Both the position numbers and the translations under genes were made by a program. 50,940 nt of DNA, from NCBI GenBank assembly GCA_023269085.1, contig JAHFML010000001.1, forward strand, positions 256,356 to 307,295, read 5' to 3'. Below the pieces are notes generated by a model. That model was not told the DNA's origin. It saw nothing but the letters and a program-made list of their open reading frames with translations, and ran no database searches. This document shows, one piece after another, positions 2,532 through 48,912 of this stretch. The stretch is from a bacterium (GTDB taxonomy: Bacteria; Patescibacteriota; Minisyncoccia; Phycocordibacterales; Phycocordibacteraceae). Positions within the stretch are counted from its first letter, which is position 1. Each line of letters begins with the position of its first letter.

Positions 2532-3521
2532 ATGTCAAGACCCCCCATTGTCGCCTCTGCCACCCCGACCCCGCCGGTCGAGGTAGACGCCGCGCTCCGC
2601 CCGAGCCATTGGGACGACTATGTCGGCCAGAAACAGATCAAAGCGAACGTGCGCATCGCTATCGACGCCGCAAAAAAGCGCGGTGGCATGCCCGAGCACA
2701 TCCTCTTCTATGGTCCGCCGGGCGTCGGGAAGACAACCCTCGCGTATCTCGTCGCCGCGACACTCGAGTCGCCCTTGAAGAGCACGTCGGGCGTCGCTAT
2801 CGAGCGCGCGGGCGACCTCGCCGCTATCCTCACCAACCTCGATCCGAACACGGTCCTCTTTATCGACGAGATCCATCGCCTCTCGCACAAGATCGAAGAG
2901 CTCCTCTACCCCGCGCTCGAGTCGGGGCATCTCGACATAATTCTCGGCAAGGGCCCCTCGGCGCGCACCGTCGAGCTCGCGCTCCCGCCCTTCACCCTCG
3001 TCGGGGCGACGACGCGCGTCTCAATGCTCTCGGGCCCCCTGCGCTCGCGCTTCGGTGGCGGGACCTTCCAGCTCGACTTCTACAGCGACGACGATCTGCG
3101 CGATATCATCAGTCGCTCGGCAGGCCTCCTCGGCCTCAACGCTCCCCGCGAGGTCATCGAGAACATCGCCGGCCGTTCACGTGCTACCCCGCGCGTTGCC
3201 AATTCCCTCTTGAAGCGCGTCCGCGACTTCTCTGAAGTGCATGAGCGCCCAATAACGCTGCCGCTCCTCGAAGAGGCCTGCCGGCTCTTCGGCATCGACG
3301 AACTCGGCCTTACCAAGGATGACAGGCGGTATCTCGAGATGCTCCGCGAGAGCTTCCACGGTGGGCCGGCGGGTGTCCGCGCGCTCGCGGCCGCGCTCCA
3401 CGAAGACCCCGACACCATCGAGAGCGTCTATGAGCCGTATCTCCTGCGCCTCGGCTTCATCGAGCGCTCCCTCCGTGGCCGCGTGCTCACCGATAAAGGG
3501 AGGGCGTACCTCGCTCGATGA
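2532..3521 (+). CDS. ruvB: Holliday junction branch-migration helicase RuvB
   Basis: LRPSHWDDYVGQKQIK.., Walker A GPPGVGKTTLA, Walker B LFIDEIHRL, sensor and winged-helix C-terminus. 329 aa. Confidence 0.95.
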   Translation: MSRPPIVASATPTPPVEVDAALRPSHWDDYVGQKQIKANVRIAIDAAKKRGGMPEHILFYGPPGVGKTTLAYLVAATLESPLKSTSGVAIERAGDLAAILTNLDPNTVLFIDEIHRLSHKIEELLYPALESGHLDIILGKGPSARTVELALPPFTLVGATTRVSMLSGPLRSRFGGGTFQLDFYSDDDLRDIISRSAGLLGLNAPREVIENIAGRSRATPRVANSLLKRVRDFSEVHERPITLPLLEEACRLFGIDELGLTKDDRRYLEMLRESFHGGPAGVRALAAALHEDPDTIESVYEPYLLRLGFIERSLRGRVLTDKGRAYLAR

Positions 3522-3574
3522 GATTGCGTCTCATGGAGAGTTTGGTATACTGAATACAATCACCACGAAAGAGA

Positions 3575-3610
3575 CCCCTGCGGAGTTCCGTCTCCACCGG
3601 GGGCTTTTTT
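3575..3610 (+). terminator. intrinsic terminator after ruvB
   Basis: Imperfect hairpin cccctgcggag / ctccaccggggg followed by cTTTTTT. Confidence 0.5.
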
Positions 3611-3878
3611 ATTTCAACTCAAGAGCATTCCGCTTATCAGCTATATACAGTATGGGCGCATCGGTTCGCTTCAACAGCAGTGAGCATTTTTCTTTTTTGC
3701 TTGGCGAAATGATCGTTTCAAATTGATTTCTGTTGTTCAGAAACTTCACAAGTTCGGCATAATCTCCGTCACTCGATACGAGAATCGCCCGCTCCATTTT
3801 CTTCTCATAAGCATCGCGCATGGCATTGTGGAGATTCGCACCATCAATATATGCGTGGTTCGTGAGCGGCTTTTGCAT
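3609..3878 (-). CDS. short NYN/LabA-like domain protein (89 aa, probably a shortened remnant)
   Basis: N-terminal AYIDGANLH and central ILVSSDGDYAELVKFL resemble the NYN motifs (xDGxN, SgDsDf). The middle of the domain appears missing. Low-GC segment. Confidence 0.45.
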   Translation of the reverse strand: MQKPLTNHAYIDGANLHNAMRDAYEKKMERAILVSSDGDYAELVKFLNNRNQFETIISPSKKEKCSLLLKRTDAPILYIADKRNALELK

Positions 3879-3884
3879 GAGCAG

Positions 3885-3893
3885 ATTTTAGCA
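3885..3893 (-). promoter_or_regulatory. TGCTAAAAT extended -10-like motif, 6 nt before ATG 3878
   Basis: Plus strand reads attttagca. Same TGCTAnnnT grammar as the core genes. Confidence 0.4.
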
Positions 3894-3907
3894 CGCTGGA
3901 AATGTCA

Positions 3908-3944
3908 CTCGGCTTCATCGAGAGTCGCGTCCTGACCGATAAAG
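3908..3944 (+). pseudogene. degenerate second copy of the ruvB 3' coding end
   Basis: ctcggcttcatcgag..cgcgtcctgaccgataaag aligns to ruvB 3449..3497 with a 12-nt in-frame deletion and 2 mismatches. Confidence 0.75.
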
Positions 3945-4015
3945 CAAATATTTGCAAAATATAGAATACACGGTATGCTCTGCGAGGATCAACCAACCCC
4001 TCCGTGGAGGAAATC

Positions 4016-4243
4016 ATGGGCTACAACGTAGTTTTCAAGAATCTCAGTGGTGTCACTACATGGACGTCGTTCGTGAGCAAAGAAAAATTCTGTGAGTGGT
4101 ACAACGACATGGCACATAACGAGCTCGCTATTGTTGCCGAAGGCGTCACTGACGATGAAGCCACTGCTTTGTGCTCTACCCTTTCGGCGCGTATGGCCGC
4201 CTTTGCTGCCGGGCTTGGGGAACTCAATGAACGCTACTCCTGA
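4016..4243 (+). CDS. hypothetical protein (75 aa)
   Basis: GGAGG sits 5 nt before ATG 4016. ORF MGYNVVFKNLSGVTTWTSF.. is followed by a terminator hairpin. No recognisable motif. Confidence 0.5.
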   Translation: MGYNVVFKNLSGVTTWTSFVSKEKFCEWYNDMAHNELAIVAEGVTDDEATALCSTLSARMAAFAAGLGELNERYS

Positions 4244-4267
4244 GCACCCGCTCCGCCGTACTCCAGC

Positions 4268-4293
4268 AAGCCCGTCCTCGCGACGGGCTTTTT
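4268..4293 (+). terminator. intrinsic terminator
   Basis: aagcccgtc ctcgc gacgggctt followed by TTTg. Confidence 0.6.
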
Positions 4294-4373
4294 GTTTGCG
4301 TGTAAAAAAGCCTGTGATATACTTTAGATATATTTGGGGCAACCCACGACCCGCGCAGGCAACTGCGCGGGGT

Positions 4374-4769
4374 CTATTTTATCTCGTGTAATTTCAAGTA
4401 TGCTTTGTTAATCTGTGTCATCTCAATTGCTCCTATTTCTCCCATCTTCTCTTTCAATCTTCGATAATCGAATGTGCGGCCTTGCGAAAGAACGATGGTC
4501 TGTTTCGTTCCTCGAAAGATAATCGGGCAATACCACGTTCCTGTTTTCTCTTTTGTTGTAAGTGGCAACCCAAGAAATGAGTACGCGTCATACTTTTTAA
4601 ATATGAAGACTGGTCGAGTGAACCGCTCGCCTTTGCCGTTCATCTCATTACCGATATTCTCTCCTGTGTGGCACCACCACAATTCGCCTTCGCGAAAGAA
4701 GGGCGGTTTGTGCTCTGCGACATGTAGACGCTCTTTTATGCCAATCCATTCGAGGAATCTTTTCAACAT
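4374..4769 (-). CDS. PemK/MazF-like toxin-fold protein (solitary)
   Basis: REGELWWCHTGENIGNEMNGKGERFTRPVFIFKKY matches the G(E/D)IWW..G.E..G.RPvlV core of PemK/MazF family proteins. 131 aa. No partner ORF upstream. Confidence 0.55.
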   Translation of the reverse strand: MLKRFLEWIGIKERLHVAEHKPPFFREGELWWCHTGENIGNEMNGKGERFTRPVFIFKKYDAYSFLGLPLTTKEKTGTWYCPIIFRGTKQTIVLSQGRTFDYRRLKEKMGEIGAIEMTQINKAYLKLHEIK

Positions 4770-47864: not shown

Positions 47865-47889
47865 AAACCCACCAGTAATGGTGGGTTTT
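47865..47889 (+). terminator. intrinsic terminator
   Basis: aaacccacc agtaat ggtgggttt t. Confidence 0.65.
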
Positions 47890-47905
47890 CCTATTAAATG
47901 CTTAG

Positions 47906-47976
47906 TCGGGCCGCCGAGAGTCGAACTCGGCCAACATCCTCCCAAAGGATGCGTACTACCGCCATACGCCGGCCCG
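47906..47976 (-). tRNA. tRNA-Pro (anticodon TGG), no encoded CCA
   Basis: CGGGCCG GC GTAT GGCGGTA GTAC G CATCC TTTGGGA GGATG TTGG CCGAG TTCGACT CTCGG CGGCCCG A. C1-G72 and G37 are typical of tRNA-Pro. Position 8 is G rather than U. Confidence 0.8.
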
Positions 47977-48020
47977 CTTGCCTCGAGCGTTGTCGAGGGG
48001 CTCTTTGCACTCTAGCAGGT

Positions 48021-48416
48021 TTATACGATTTGCGGCAGATACGAGACGCGCGCCATGCCATCGCGCCTGCGGAGCCAGACGAGCGCGCCGTCGACCTGCC
48101 AGTCCCCCTCCCAGCGTTTCTCTAGGACATACCACTCCCCCGTCCGCGCAACTTTGCGGATCTTCGCCTCGTGCAAGTTTATCGAAGGGTCATACTCGTC
48201 GCCCGTGTGCGCCGCATCGGCAAATTCGTCAACCAGAATAGTCTTCACCTCGACGAAGTGGAGCGTATCTTCGCTCTCGGCGATGATATCGAGCTCGCCC
48301 GTCTTACGAGCAATATTTCGGTCGCGGATGGTGAATCCGTGCCGTTTCAGGTACTCGGCGGCGACCTTTTCCCCCAAATTTCCGACCTCTTTGCGGGTAT
48401 ACGCAGAAATGTTCAC
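48021..48416 (-). CDS. yraN: YraN-family (UPF0102) endonuclease-like protein
   Basis: GNLGEKVAAEYLKRHGFTIRDRNIARKTGELDIIAESEDTLHFVEVKT, the YraN signature. GTG start. Confidence 0.8.
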   Translation of the reverse strand: MNISAYTRKEVGNLGEKVAAEYLKRHGFTIRDRNIARKTGELDIIAESEDTLHFVEVKTILVDEFADAAHTGDEYDPSINLHEAKIRKVARTGEWYVLEKRWEGDWQVDGALVWLRRRDGMARVSYLPQIV

Positions 48417-48489
48417 GGCTTTTAGAAATAGGGCTTAGATACTGGATAATTTTAGGACGCTCGTTCAAAAATGCTTCACAGACATTCGT

Positions 48490-48522
48490 CCTTTATCCCC
48501 AATACTAACACCTTTATCCCCA
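48490..48522. repeat. two direct copies of cctttatcccca, 21 bp apart (each contains TTATCCCCA, 8/9 to the DnaA-box consensus)
   Basis: 48490-48501 and 48511-48522, in the yraN / tRNA-Gly spacer. Confidence 0.7.
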
Positions 48523-48573
48523 GTTTTTACGAAAGTCTTTTAGTGCGTGCACAGCGTAGCTTAAGCGAAGTTG

Positions 48574-48644
48574 TGCGGATAGGGAGAATCGGACTCCCGT
48601 CTCATCCTTGGCAAGGACGTGTTCTACCACTAAACCATATCCGC
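48574..48644 (-). tRNA. tRNA-Gly (anticodon GCC), no encoded CCA, non-canonical T-loop
   Basis: GCGGATA TG GTTT AGTGGTA GAAC A CGTCC TTGCCAA GGATG AGAC GGGAG TCCGATT CTCCC TATCCGC A. 71 nt. Confidence 0.85.
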
Positions 48645-48682
48645 GTGAGCATATACTAACACAAAGCCTGGTTATATTTCTA

Positions 48683-48700
48683 GTGCCCCCGCCAGGACTC
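48683..48700 (-). repeat. 18-nt exact direct repeat of the tRNA-Arg 3' end (att-like remnant)
   Basis: gtgcccccgccaggactc equals 48840..48857. Confidence 0.85.
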
Positions 48701-48809
48701 TTTCCCTACGGGAACGGTATACCTTGCGGATTTTCTCTTCGCTTCAGAAAGCTCGATAAAATGCTCGCAAGGTCTTCTCGTCCTGGACGCACGCCTCCCA
48801 GGCGTGCTC

Positions 48810-48847
48810 GGGGGCACAAAAGCTCGCGGACTCTCTTTTGTGCCCCC
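48810..48847 (-). other. 13-bp perfect hairpin that incorporates the tRNA-Arg acceptor 3' strand and trailer
   Basis: gggggcacaaaag (48810-22) / cttttgtgccccc (48835-47), with a 12-nt loop. Confidence 0.7.
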
Positions 48848-48912
48848 GCCAGGACTCGAACCTGGAACGACAGTTCCGAAGACTGTTGTGATATCCATTT
48901 CACTACGAGGGC
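48841..48912 (-). tRNA. tRNA-Arg (anticodon TCG), no encoded CCA
   Basis: GCCCTCG TA GTGA AATGGATA TCAC A ACAGT CTTCGGA ACTGT CGTT CCAGG TTCGAGT CCTGG CGGGGGC A. 72 nt. Confidence 0.85.

Follow-up and report, generated by a model that had tools for sequence, protein, structure and literature searches.

Gene-end duplications around accessory cassettes form a recurrent insertion scar in a Candidatus Kaiserbacteria genome

Results

Gene ends, cargo and displaced gene ends

The window, the whole analysed stretch of 50,940 nt, comes from a member of Candidatus Kaiserbacteria (CPR), which has a tiny genome with tightly packed genes. Small accessory genes, mostly toxin-antitoxin, are placed 3' of conserved genes, between two copies of the gene end (Table 1). 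The architecture proposed from the sequence alone, an intact gene end followed by cargo and then by a displaced copy of that end in the same orientation, is borne out. Five of the six repeat pairs claimed at that stage beat shuffled sequences, while the tRNA-Pro fragment is weaker. Computed GC is 47–55% for the cargo and 58% for the core, so that the earlier estimate (35–52% against about 60%) had the right direction but too low a lower bound. Among the cargo types named there, Pfam supports the NYN remnant, PemK/MazF, HicA, M23 with CBM96, and TrmB; HicB is assigned by position only. The window also carries comEC, type IV pilus genes, recJ, ruvB and ruvC, and its large ORFs, as had been stated, include none with an integrase or transposase match (Pfam).

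Table 1. Features of the insertion loci in the window.
Feature	Position	Strand	Basis
ruvB, intact	2532..3521	+	Pfam RuvB_N/AAA_lid_4/RuvB_C
ruvB proximal (gene-attached) copy, last 76 nt, end ...GRAYLAR-stop	3446-3521	+	repeat comparison
truncated NYN-domain gene, cargo	3609..3878	-	Pfam NYN 1.3e-5
degenerate middle ruvB 3'-end copy, 12-nt internal deletion	3908..3944	+	0/1000 shuffles
79-aa cargo ORF, function not assigned, own terminator 4268-4290	4004..4243	+	ORF, Pfam search
solitary PemK/MazF-like toxin unit, cargo	4318..4782	-	Pfam PemK 4.4e-8
distal ruvB 3'-end copy, ...GRAYLNA-stop	4784..4858	+	repeat comparison
yebC, native downstream neighbour of ruvB	4880..5434	+	Pfam
sod (Fe/Mn superoxide dismutase), intact	20785..21372	+	Pfam
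sod proximal copy, short-type end ...DEAMR-stop	21313-21366	+	repeat comparison
252-aa cargo ORF, N-terminal hydrophobic segment, no family match	21417..22175	+	ORF, Pfam search
secreted M23 peptidase with CBM96 domain, cargo	22231..23574	-	Pfam Peptidase_M23 3.4e-21, CBM96
comEC	23634..25325	-	Pfam Competence/DUF4131
sod distal copy, long-type ...DAAMTMSAA-stop, inside antisense comEC 3' end	23668..23740	+	repeat comparison, relatives
rny (RNase Y), intact	40617..42164	+	Pfam
rny proximal copy, canonical end ...RENRVVEFAR-stop	42112-42164	+	repeat, relatives
HicB-like antitoxin, cargo	42176-42454	+	position and 4-nt overlap only
HicA toxin, cargo	42451-42675	+	Pfam HicA 1.4e-16
second rny 3'-end copy, body 94% identical to first, tail degenerate	42690..42743	+	repeat comparison
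26-nt perfect hairpin CAATACATAGGGTAGTCCTATGTATT between rny copies 2 and 3	42744..42769		sequence
third rny copy, native last 18 nt, GTCGAGTTTGCGCGGTGA	42770..42787	+	11 relatives; 1/1000 shuffles
S1-family (trypsin-like) serine protease, intact	44088..45227	+	Pfam Trypsin_2
S1 proximal copy, ...LLESIITANLR-stop	45183-45221	+	repeat comparison
177-aa membrane or secreted cargo protein, no family	45234..45767	-	ORF, Pfam search
tRNA-Pro 3'-end fragment	45794..45821	-	11/1000 shuffles
diverged distal S1 3'-end copy, SLESLITANL-stop	45854..45895	+	0/1000 shuffles
TrmB-family regulator, cargo block 45900..47845	45900-46688	-	Pfam TrmB 6.1e-16
181-aa ORF, same block	46887-47432	+	ORF
84-aa membrane ORF, same block	47591-47845	+	ORF
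tRNA-Pro(UGG), intact	47905..47976	-	ARAGORN
exact 18-nt copy of tRNA-Arg 3' end	48683..48700	-	sequence, shuffles
139-nt insert with inverted, hairpin-interrupted tRNA-Arg 3'-end copy	48701..48839		sequence
tRNA-Arg(UCG), intact	48840..48912	-	ARAGORN, Rfam

The ruvB pair (3446-3512 vs 4784-4850) extends over 67 nt at 94% identity, with 4/67 differences in the body and then 5/9 in the tail. The middle fragment shares an exact 15-mer, followed after the 12-nt gap by 17/22 nt, and leads directly into TTTGCAAAATATAGAAT, which resembles a yebC promoter; the distal copy runs on into a likely native spacer and promoter, TTTTTTGCTATAGT, and then yebC. All three copies are followed by a -10-like spacer similar to the ruvB-yebC spacers of relatives, a resemblance of little weight because TATACT -10 boxes are frequent throughout this genome. 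The MazF-like unit consists of a -10 box, an ORF (4374-4769), a bidirectional terminator (4350-4371) and a conserved tail, GTCGTGGGTTGCCCCAAATAT. A relative (L086) has a full-length NYN gene of 181 aa at the same ruvB site. Where the site is empty, yebC starts 2-50 nt past ruvB, and where it is filled, the duplication is present in 3/10 cases and absent in 7/10.

The sod pair (21313-21366 vs 23668-23721) measures 54 nt, again with 94% identity. In relatives (L163, L165) sod and comEC are convergent, carry no insert and overlap by 70-85 nt; in the window, the junction at 23667/23668 has swapped the last ~5 native codons of comEC (...AKNASI-stop) for ...AKKNMMVASPQSS-stop. The distal copy has the long form of the end, as in L163, and the short proximal end resembles the DEAK-stop end of L165.

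At rny, the first two copies form a pair of 36 nt (42112-42147 vs 42690-42725, 94% identity). The proximal tail encodes the canonical VVEFAR-stop, while that of the displaced copy is degenerate, a 1-nt insertion resulting in an in-frame reading through the hairpin into the third copy. This hairpin was found at one locus only among all loci compared. Comparison with 11 relatives shows that the third copy passes without a break into the native sequence between rny and hup, including the hup promoter. In the relative L008, a diverged HicBA comes next after rny.

The S1 copies (45183-45221 vs 45854-45892) differ in protein sequence as LLESIITANLR-stop vs SLESLITANL-stop. The insert spans the S1 end to the tRNA-Pro 3' fragment, with order and orientation, including that of the fragment relative to S1, syntenic. 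The fragment, the weakest of the repeat pairs, has kept the acceptor stem and shows compensatory changes in the T-arm stem. The cargo block 45900..47845 is missing between S1 and tRNA-Pro in three relatives (L001, L004, L005). The 18-nt tRNA-Arg copy adjoins a spacer of ~38 nt before tRNA-Gly (39 nt in L001), and the 139-nt insert is strongly structured (fold z = -4.8).

Restriction to 3' ends and codon changes

As a control, 43 genes were searched for downstream copies of their 3' ends, 5' ends and middles. Strong copies (score >=36) were found for 3' ends only, namely of ruvB, sod/comEC, rny, S1 and tRNA-Arg, and none for 5' ends or gene middles. The duplication of gene ends around cargo is a real and recurrent insertion scar. 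Codon changes between the copies in the window are synonymous in 7 cases and non-synonymous in 3; over 10 repeat pairs, 20 synonymous changes (3 of them stop-to-stop) compare with 8 non-synonymous ones and no frameshift. The earlier view of mostly synonymous differences thus holds, and supports the interpretation that the copies behave as functional gene ends and not as slippage products.

Empty sites and recurrence in relatives

A check for empty sites found relatives without an insert and with conserved synteny at ruvB-yebC, rny-hup, S1-tRNA-Pro and tRNA-Gly-tRNA-Arg. The gene-attached copy is the end of the functional gene; the distal copy, where relatives permit judgement, continues into native downstream DNA, most clearly at rny, also at sod and tRNA-Arg, and less so at ruvB. 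The cargo units are small and lower in GC. Most are toxin-antitoxin or solitary toxin genes, and they differ from relative to relative. NYN at ruvB and HicBA at rny recur in relatives of ~80% protein identity. No same-species alternative state was found; every contig with an identical HU or RuvB has the same arrangement.

Relatives carry the scar too, at clpP, pilB, ruvB, rplL and tkt, and the cassette within it is usually a toxin-antitoxin one. In 1.02 Mb of loci from Paceibacterota we counted ~11 duplications of gene 3' ends, vs 0-1 in 0.78 Mb from other phyla; the Paceibacterota cargo includes RelB/YafQ, ParE-like, HigBA-like and MazF-like genes. MazF-like homologues occupy five different sites (the window and four in relatives), among them an intergenic 5' UTR, a gene 5' end and gene 3' ends, and three of these insertions have flanking repeats of ~60-70 nt (67, 59-64 and 69 nt). 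The start of the distal copy varies by lineage at the same gene (pilB -24/-35/-52; ruvB -65 to -91; rny -53/-23/-18), and the repeats of ruvB, sod, rny, S1, clpP, pilB and rplL have no common core or motif. Identity is 94-100% between the copies of one genome and ~76% between orthologous ends across relatives. All four changes in the rplL pair are synonymous, and the pilB pair of L101 has Arg as AGA vs CGT. The contrast between body and tail recurs in clpP of L008 (0/45, then 2/6) and pilB of L101 (1/29, then a different tail). In L175, a ~50-nt repeat stands ahead of each of three cassettes in a regular array, which, like the tRNA 3' fragments, also resembles tandem accretion at an att site.

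Discussion

The footprint matches “insertion with long target duplication” (Nobusato 2000; Furuta 2010), where the cargo consists of restriction-modification genes, and the window is best described as a variant of this already known footprint, a precedent that the sequence-only reading did not name. The original cases come mostly from competent species, and their repeats often span a stop or start codon (PMC2853133). As the underlying process we favour, and consider probable if by no means certain, an insertion that needs no recombinase, takes place at hotspots 3' of conserved genes and leaves a long target duplication of variable length.

A relative's version of the hotspot, comprising the gene end, the spacer and the relative's cargo, would enter the cell, probably by putative natural transformation. 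On the left side homologous recombination would occur within the conserved gene, and on the right side, where usable homology is missing, an illegitimate joint would form. As the spacers are 2-50 nt, and negative at sod/comEC, a right-hand joint further downstream would cost the cell the following gene or its promoter, so the survivors would be those with a joint upstream of the resident stop codon. In these, the end of the resident gene would be left after the cargo, forming a direct repeat. Cassettes would stack through repeated events. That the inserted DNA is part of a homologous locus is suggested by the syntenic run from the S1 end to the tRNA-Pro fragment, by the canonical proximal rny tail beside a degenerate displaced one, by the allele-like, mostly synonymous differences between copies and, weakly, by the -10-like spacers at ruvB.

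Transformation and recombination at gene ends, one of two routes suggested by the sequence-only reading, fits better than a recombinase, but clean double-crossover exchange is insufficient: it creates no duplication, so that one junction must be illegitimate. Saccharibacteria have been shown to be transformable in a comEC-dependent way, the DNA being inserted by homology (PMC10633639), and integration through one homologous and one illegitimate junction is already established (PMC3240628). Several points count against the transformation model. A donor sequence for the cassettes was not found, nor was a same-species genome in an alternative state. The L175 array and the tRNA 3' fragments would also suit accretion at an att site. 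Laboratory events of the homology-plus-illegitimate type are mostly known to yield deletions, not duplications. In several pairs, near-identical bodies with sharply differing last codons suggest that resident sequence may really have been duplicated to form the body, which simple replacement by one molecule does not yield.

The last point leads to an unlikely but credible alternative, a true in-situ long target duplication, where both copies would be resident-derived and later diverged, with the insert supplying the proximal tail, for example if, at a replication fork, the two ends of an incoming fragment each joined a different sister chromosome, at staggered positions. This was the original framing of the phenomenon (PMC2853133), and transformation in S. 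pneumoniae can bridge sister chromosomes and create duplications (PMC3784515). Besides the abrupt change from body to tail, it is consistent with the similar repeat lengths at the three MazF-like insertions and with the occurrence of repeats outside coding sequence and at the 5' end of a gene. However, the proximal tails are not random but real homologous gene ends (rny VVEFAR-stop, sod DEAMR-stop, pilB R-stop, clpP S-stop), synonymous differences run throughout the rplL, pilB (L125) and ruvB (L103) pairs as for two alleles, and this model alone leaves the tRNA-Pro fragment within the S1 insert unexplained.

Less probable still are decayed or non-autonomous integrative elements, whose tyrosine or serine recombinase would be encoded elsewhere or lost. 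The repeats would be attL and attR, derived from circular elements with a replacement gene or tRNA 3' end in attP, as at tRNA genes or icd. The layout fits, the tRNA-Pro and tRNA-Arg 3' fragments look like classic att remnants, some identical bodies with different tails resemble a core with an element-supplied end, and cassettes are stacked in tandem at ruvB, rny and in the L175 array. Nevertheless, a site-specific integrase appears unlikely because neither the large ORFs of the window nor 44 cargo ORFs taken from ~20 inserts of relatives include a recombinase, boundaries vary between lineages at one gene, and 7/10 filled ruvB sites are unduplicated. The absence of a motif shared among the repeats and the MazF-like unit in unrelated targets (5' UTR, gene 5' end, gene 3' ends) likewise speak against the trans-acting recombinase that had been suggested as the other route, and a search of a viral collection found no relatives of the cargo.

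It is very improbable that the copies are old, fixed local duplications kept for regulation, with promoters or terminators in the gene ends and independent cargo, and hence no insertion scar. A promoter-like -10 element follows each copy, some cargo genes begin <=15 nt from a repeat, and relatives share NYN at ruvB and HicBA at rny; against this, the much higher identity within a genome than across relatives indicates recent and independent events, most relatives have clean empty sites, and several distal copies (in L086, rny copy 2, the ruvB middle copy) are decaying with indels. Chimeric assembly of co-existing strains has a negligible chance of being the cause: although graph mis-joins in a metagenome assembly such as this could in principle give lower-GC inserts bounded by shared sequence, the ruvB copies and the rny copies share exact words of no more than ~18 nt, shorter than usual k-mers, independent Logan contigs of two runs (L167, window 2469-5076; L081, 42116-43974) reproduce these two loci end to end at 100% across the whole cassettes, the gene order is common to at least three long contigs, and the scar is also found in many unrelated JGI, NCBI and ENA assemblies, all of which makes an assembly artefact unlikely.

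Under homology-anchored, illegitimately joined insertion, addictive toxin-antitoxin cargo and the need for both flanking genes to stay intact would stabilise the cassettes, and a repeat-flanked cassette, once made, could spread via ordinary two-arm homologous recombination.

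Duplicated gene ends in the window

At all six loci of the window (ruvB, sod at its junction with comEC, rny, the S1 protease, tRNA-Pro and tRNA-Arg) the 3' end of the target gene is restored and direct repeats occur at both edges of the insert. The six repeat sets listed by the sequence-only reading were all recovered (see the table), and its account of the architecture is correct: a gene-attached (proximal) end is followed by cargo and then by a displaced (distal) copy of the gene end in the same orientation. Inserts range from 0.14–2.7 kb and thus stay below 20 kb. The repeats range from 18–91 nt overall and differ in length between events, and exact words common to the copies reach only ~18 nt at ruvB and rny. 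In a control covering 43 genes, strong downstream copies were found for 3' ends only, with none for 5' ends or gene middles.

Repeat copies and associated features in the window and in loci of relatives (L numbers)
Feature	Location	Extent	Remarks
ruvB repeat pair	3446–3512 vs 4784–4850	67 nt, 94% identity	
ruvB middle fragment	3908–3944		beats 1000 shuffles
sod repeat pair	21313–21366 vs 23668–23721	54 nt (54+), 94% identity	
sod/comEC overlap	window 21313–21372 / 23634–23740; L163 5522–5606; L165 5522–5591		
rny repeat pair	42112–42147 vs 42690–42725	36 nt at 94%; full repeat 53 nt	
rny last 18 nt, third copy	42770–42787	18 nt	beats 1000 shuffles
S1 protease distal end	45854–45892	~39 nt	LLESIITANLR* vs SLESLITANL*; beats 1000 shuffles
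tRNA-Pro fragment	45794–45821		weakest of the set (11/1000 shuffles); acceptor stem kept, T-stem compensated
tRNA-Arg 3' end copy	48683–48700	exact 18-mer, only 18 nt	beats 1000 shuffles
MazF-like downstream element	window 4318–4373; L168 1752–1795; L173 ~3925–3975; L175 1547–1590; L178 ~3893–3945		
clpP gene-end duplication	L008	45 nt at 100%	around a RelB/YafQ-like pair
pilB gene-end duplication	L091, L101, L125, L175		
ruvB gene-end duplication	L086, L103		in L086 around a full-length NYN gene
rny gene-end duplication	L003		
rplL gene-end duplication	L168	27 nt	4/4 changed codons synonymous

The duplications are real and recurrent, and an assembly artefact is rejected. The possibility that they are chimeras of co-existing strains, which had been named as one observation that would overturn the reading, is contradicted by contigs of the Logan collection from two sequencing runs, which match the window at 100% over the entire ruvB locus (2469–5076) and over 42116–43974, a segment with HicBA, both distal rny copies and hup. 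It is contradicted also by the shortness of the shared words and by the presence of the identical type of scar in many unrelated assemblies. The gene order is common to at least three long contigs.

The copies carry information on their origin. In ten in-frame pairs, 20 codon differences are synonymous, including three exchanges of one stop codon for another, versus 8 that are non-synonymous; no pair has a frameshift, and the tally is in line with the initial impression that the differences are mostly synonymous. In a relative's locus (L101), the two copies use different codons for the Arg preceding the stop (AGA versus CGT). The proximal tails are real gene ends: that of rny reads VVEFAR*, and the short sod end DEAMR* is like DEAK* of the relative L165. 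The S1 insert spans from an S1 end to a tRNA-Pro 3' fragment, which is the syntenic order, and all three ruvB copies are followed by a spacer with a -10-like box, as in the ruvB-yebC spacers of relatives, a box that is generic in this genome. Because of the synonymous differences, the real proximal tails, the S1/tRNA-Pro order and the ruvB spacers, we read the inserts as apparent pieces of other alleles of the same hotspot. Simple replacement does not fit every case, as several pairs have a nearly identical body and sharply different last codons; such pairs hint that the body of the repeat may have arisen by genuine duplication of the resident sequence.

The rny locus (42690–42787) has a further peculiarity: its displaced second copy has a 1-nt insertion, as a result of which its frame runs through a 26-nt hairpin into the native last six codons (...RENRIALVRGVAIHRVVLCIVEFAR*). 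The gene may have carried a 16-codon in-frame insertion prior to the arrival of HicBA. No second copy of the hairpin, as expected of a repeated mini-element, was found in 178 loci.

Empty sites in relatives

By the relatives of its RNase Y and RuvB, the window belongs to Candidatus Kaiserbacteria (Paceibacterota, CPR). The nearest relatives have a protein identity of only 80–87%, and share the gene orders pilB-ruvB-yebC-ruvC-pbp-dnaN and nusA-ppa-clpP-rny-hup ... S1-tRNA-Pro-UPF0102-tRNA-Gly-tRNA-Arg-cca. Comparison at syntenic loci, which the sequence-only reading had proposed as a check, revealed empty sites or native overlap at ruvB, rny, S1, tRNA-Arg and sod. In relatives, yebC starts 2–50 nt after ruvB, hup follows rny after ~120 nt, S1 and tRNA-Pro are separated by 3–40 nt, and the gap from tRNA-Arg to tRNA-Gly is ~39 nt. 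The most distal rny copy (GTCGAGTTTGCGCGGTGA) is continuous with the conserved spacer and the hup promoter. In the distal sod copy, which sits within the 3' end of comEC, the gene end is of the long type found in the relative L163 (in many relatives, Sod has 201 aa); the last five comEC codons are replaced at the junction 23667/23668. The order at each locus that follows from this comparison is intact gene with proximal end, insert, displaced native end and native downstream DNA.

Same-strain variants with an empty site were sought by exact-protein look-ups, which returned no record for YebC and Sod and, for HU and RuvB, only contigs of identical arrangement.

Two further observations concern the same intervals. 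The convergent sod and comEC genes of Kaiserbacteria overlap with their coding 3' ends by 70–85 nt on opposite strands, an unusually long conserved antisense overlap. Small, local inversions that keep the order of flanking genes are seen at the tRNA genes of two relatives: tRNA-Pro is inverted in place in L001 (14782–14852) and L004 (15146–15216) relative to the window (47905–47976), and in L004 (15789–15975) the tRNA-Gly/tRNA-Arg pair is flipped as a block relative to the window (48573–48912) and other relatives.

Flanking genes, cargo and the search for mobility enzymes

Pfam assigns the flanking genes to RuvB, YebC, Sod, ComEC, RNase Y, HU, a trypsin-like protease and the CCA enzyme, and the cargo of the window to an NYN remnant, a PemK/MazF-like toxin, HicA, an M23 peptidase with CBM96, and TrmB; HicB was assigned by position alone. 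The GC content is 47–55% for cargo versus 58% for the core. The large ORFs of the 51 kb window include dnaA/dnaN, a type IV secretion-like cluster, type IV pilus genes, comEC, recJ and ruvC, and no integrase, transposase or relaxase was found among them. None of 44 cargo ORFs from relatives matched a recombinase family, NCBIfam gave no meaningful match for unassigned cargo ORFs, and scans of viral collections with the M23 peptidase and the MazF-like protein as queries returned nothing useful on a phage origin. With Rfam, three tRNAs alone reached the gathering score in the window, leaving the inserts without any known RNA.

The type IV secretion-like cluster (12624–19142) encodes a pilin-like protein, a VirB4/TraG-type ATPase and PrgI, and is kept in two relatives (L163, L165); it is a possible second DNA-transfer route beside competence (compare PMC12102498). 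The dnaN and dnaA genes (-) adjoin yidC (+) at 8325–12163 and the cumulative GC skew has its minimum at ~12–12.5 kb, so that the replication origin is probably inside the window. A 191-nt inverted repeat (1721–1911 / 35842–36032, 78% identity) is due to paralogous PilB/T2SSE ATPase genes at 656–2329 (+) and 35406–37226 (-). Near-perfect or perfect palindromic terminators after clpP (40568–40616) and hup (43167–43217) have the common core CGCGGCGCCTCCGGCGCCGCG and are 77% identical over 47 nt.

Recurrence in relatives and the MazF-like cassette

When loci were compared with themselves, ~11 gene-3'-end duplications were detected in 1.02 Mb of Paceibacterota versus 0–1 in 0.78 Mb of other phyla. 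The cargo consists mostly of toxin-antitoxin genes: YafQ (twice), ParE(-like), RelB, Gp49/HigB with an HTH antitoxin, HicBA and MazF-like.

For the MazF-like gene in the ruvB insert, 280 relatives were counted. Its homologues occupy the pilB-ruvB spacer, the interval separating the two transketolase genes, and positions behind rplL and behind a MarR gene. Of the insertions of this family, three are flanked by repeats of 60–70 nt; the duplicated sequence is an intergenic 5' UTR in one of them and the 5' end of a gene in another. Duplication is thus not specific to 3' ends, which are simply where most tolerated targets are located. The 5' boundary of the unit varies from site to site. The gene is solitary, without an adjacent antitoxin gene, and a non-coding element downstream of it is constant, with a bidirectional terminator hairpin plus GTCGTGGGTTGCCCCAAATAT; its conservation exceeds that of the coding region, and it might be an RNA partner or regulator.

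Other structured or repetitive elements were seen at these and related loci. The 139-nt insert next to tRNA-Arg (48701–48839) contains the tRNA-Arg 3' end once more, in inverted orientation and split by a GC-rich hairpin, and has a fold z of -4.8 versus shuffles; it could be the remnant of a fold-back rearrangement or a small structured RNA. Between pilB and ruvB on the 4-kb contig of a relative (L175), a ~50-nt sequence precedes each of three successive cassettes (427–479, 1092–1137, 1631–1683), which carry RelB/YafQ, MazF-like and a 164-aa ORF; these repeats are 85–92% identical and have a small hairpin of their own. The array looks integron-like, and the contig lacks an integrase. The ruvB-yebC spacers of two further loci (L101, 6976–7075; L108, 3014–3141) share a ~37-nt sequence, GGTAGTAAGACTTGGCCTAGCGGCCCGGAGCGCGACC, in opposite orientations and each time within a long hairpin, which may be an invertible or palindromic mini-element. 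In the locus L006, a 38-nt exact repeat is present in both an N-terminally truncated RarA-like gene (5358–6224) and an IstB-like fragment (IS21 helper; 7398–7754), the latter being the sole transposon-related sequence seen among the relatives' loci.

Comparison with known systems

Judged from sequence, the footprint matches the class called “insertion with long target duplication” (Nobusato et al. 2000, Gene 259:99; Furuta, Abe & Kobayashi 2010, PMC2853133). That class was recognised around restriction-modification genes when genomes of H. pylori, H. influenzae, Neisseria and others were compared. Its repeats are long and variable, often reach across a stop or start codon and come with no other mobile element, and its hosts are mostly competent (PMC2853133; PMC3874152). 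As the repeats often span its stop or start, the flanking gene stays intact. Both here and there, direct repeats of tens of bases and of variable length surround a small gene unit, correspond to a single copy at the empty site of a relative, and come with addictive or selfish cargo and no linked integrase or transposase. Direct repeats above ~30 bp that match a single copy at the empty site occur at ruvB, sod, rny and S1, while tRNA-Arg has only 18 nt. The cargo differs: restriction-modification systems, which Furuta et al. (2010) used as a search criterion, are replaced here by pairs of toxin and antitoxin, by the solitary MazF-like toxin and by various small genes. Also different are the CPR host, the very high density of five or six sites within 51 kb, the stacked cassettes, and several proximal copies with a tail resembling a different allele of the gene end. 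A literature search found no prior report of such a scar in CPR.

In Neisseria, as minimal mobile elements or at hotspots flanked by core genes, small cassettes of differing kinds occupy one and the same interval from genome to genome; they lack mobility genes and are exchanged through transformation followed by homologous recombination. Exchange via two homologous arms leaves no duplication, however, and the gene-end repeats described here need an extra, non-homologous step. Homology-facilitated illegitimate recombination, as outlined for Acinetobacter, S. pneumoniae and P. stutzeri (PMC3240628), has in common with the mechanism proposed here a homologous anchor in a conserved gene, a second end joined without homology, the entry of foreign DNA beside the anchor, and no need for an element-encoded enzyme. 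That process is known from laboratory crosses, whereas the duplication of the anchor end is our proposal. Its usual laboratory product is an insertion accompanied by a deletion of recipient DNA.

Elements that restore a 3' end, namely islands at tRNA genes and phages 21 and e14 at icd, likewise bring a replacement 3' end, displace the native end to the far side and may accrete in tandem. They encode or need a site-specific recombinase with a fixed crossover core, whereas no recombinase was found here, boundaries are variable, and many insertions at the same hotspots are repeat-free.

Mechanism of insertion

We consider it most likely that the cassettes arise by DNA uptake, a homologous anchor and an illegitimate joint. 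DNA from a hotspot allele of a relative, with gene end, spacer and cargo, would be taken up and would pair by homology within the conserved gene, and its heterologous far end would be joined illegitimately. With spacers of 2–50 nt, or even negative ones, only joints upstream of the resident stop codon would spare both neighbours, and for this reason survivors would carry a gene-end repeat. Repeated rounds could stack cassettes, as at ruvB, rny and in L175, toxin-antitoxin cargo would resist loss, and cassettes once flanked by repeats could then spread through ordinary two-arm recombination. Integration by homology on one side, with the other side joined illegitimately, is an established process, in the outline of PMC3240628, and transformation can generate duplications via bridging of sister chromosomes, as sketched in PMC3784515. 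Saccharibacteria, the only CPR group with demonstrated competence, show comEC-dependent transformation with homologous insertion (PMC10633639). The window has comEC, type IV pilus genes, recJ and ruvBC, which might serve DNA uptake and recombination.

A more far-reaching idea, to which we give little credence, is that the repeats function as portable homology arms: small cassettes, toxin-antitoxin ones among them, would leave the chromosome in circular form and, with host RecA alone, integrate at the matching gene end of other cells. This would be a recombinase-free mobile system and the main route of accessory-gene flux in CPR. Alternatively, an undiscovered host enzyme might make the staggered joints.

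The sequence-only reading had left the choice between a recombination route and a trans-acting recombinase encoded elsewhere; the former is favoured and the latter is not. Starts of the distal copy relative to the gene end vary at one and the same gene (pilB -24/-35/-52; ruvB -65 to -91; rny -53/-23/-18), repeats of different sites have no common motif, and only 3 of 10 insert-bearing ruvB-yebC sites, those of relatives and the window taken together, have a duplication. A fixed-core recombinase, whether acting in cis or in trans, predicts neither these features nor the boundary shifts of the MazF-like unit. No recombinase gene was found in or beside the elements, either in the 51-kb window or in the inserts of relatives.

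Several other candidates were rejected. A single fixed ruvB boundary, suggested by the window, L086 and L103, is refuted by the measured range of starts, and the pilB cases also speak against it. A DNA transposon or insertion sequence is incompatible with the long, variable repeats (18–91 nt), the lack of terminal inverted repeats and of a transposase, and the shifting 5' boundary of the MazF-like unit. Xer/dif-type modules seem unlikely, no dif-like palindrome being visible in the repeats, and retention of the distal copy purely as promoter of the next gene is unnecessary, as the -10 boxes lie beyond the stop codons. A diversity-generating retroelement fails for want of a reverse transcriptase (the RVT_3 match at 25291–25752 is RNase H), and mismatches are not adenine-specific (G/A, T/C, T/C and T/C between the ruvB copies).

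Significance

CPR/Patescibacteria have tiny genomes with almost no spacer and few recognisable mobile elements, yet their accessory genes vary. The loci described here show a route by which new genes are wedged between essential genes without breaking them, by duplication of a gene end. They suggest that toxin-antitoxin modules may share the recombinase-free travel described by Kobayashi's group for restriction-modification genes. Annotators of metagenome-assembled genomes can use the scars as an inexpensive sign of recent insertion. They are ~10x denser here than in the other phyla sampled, and cultivable relatives, the Saccharibacteria, are transformable. The mechanism of long target duplication, a question since 2000, could thus become testable in a CPR lineage where such scars are dense.
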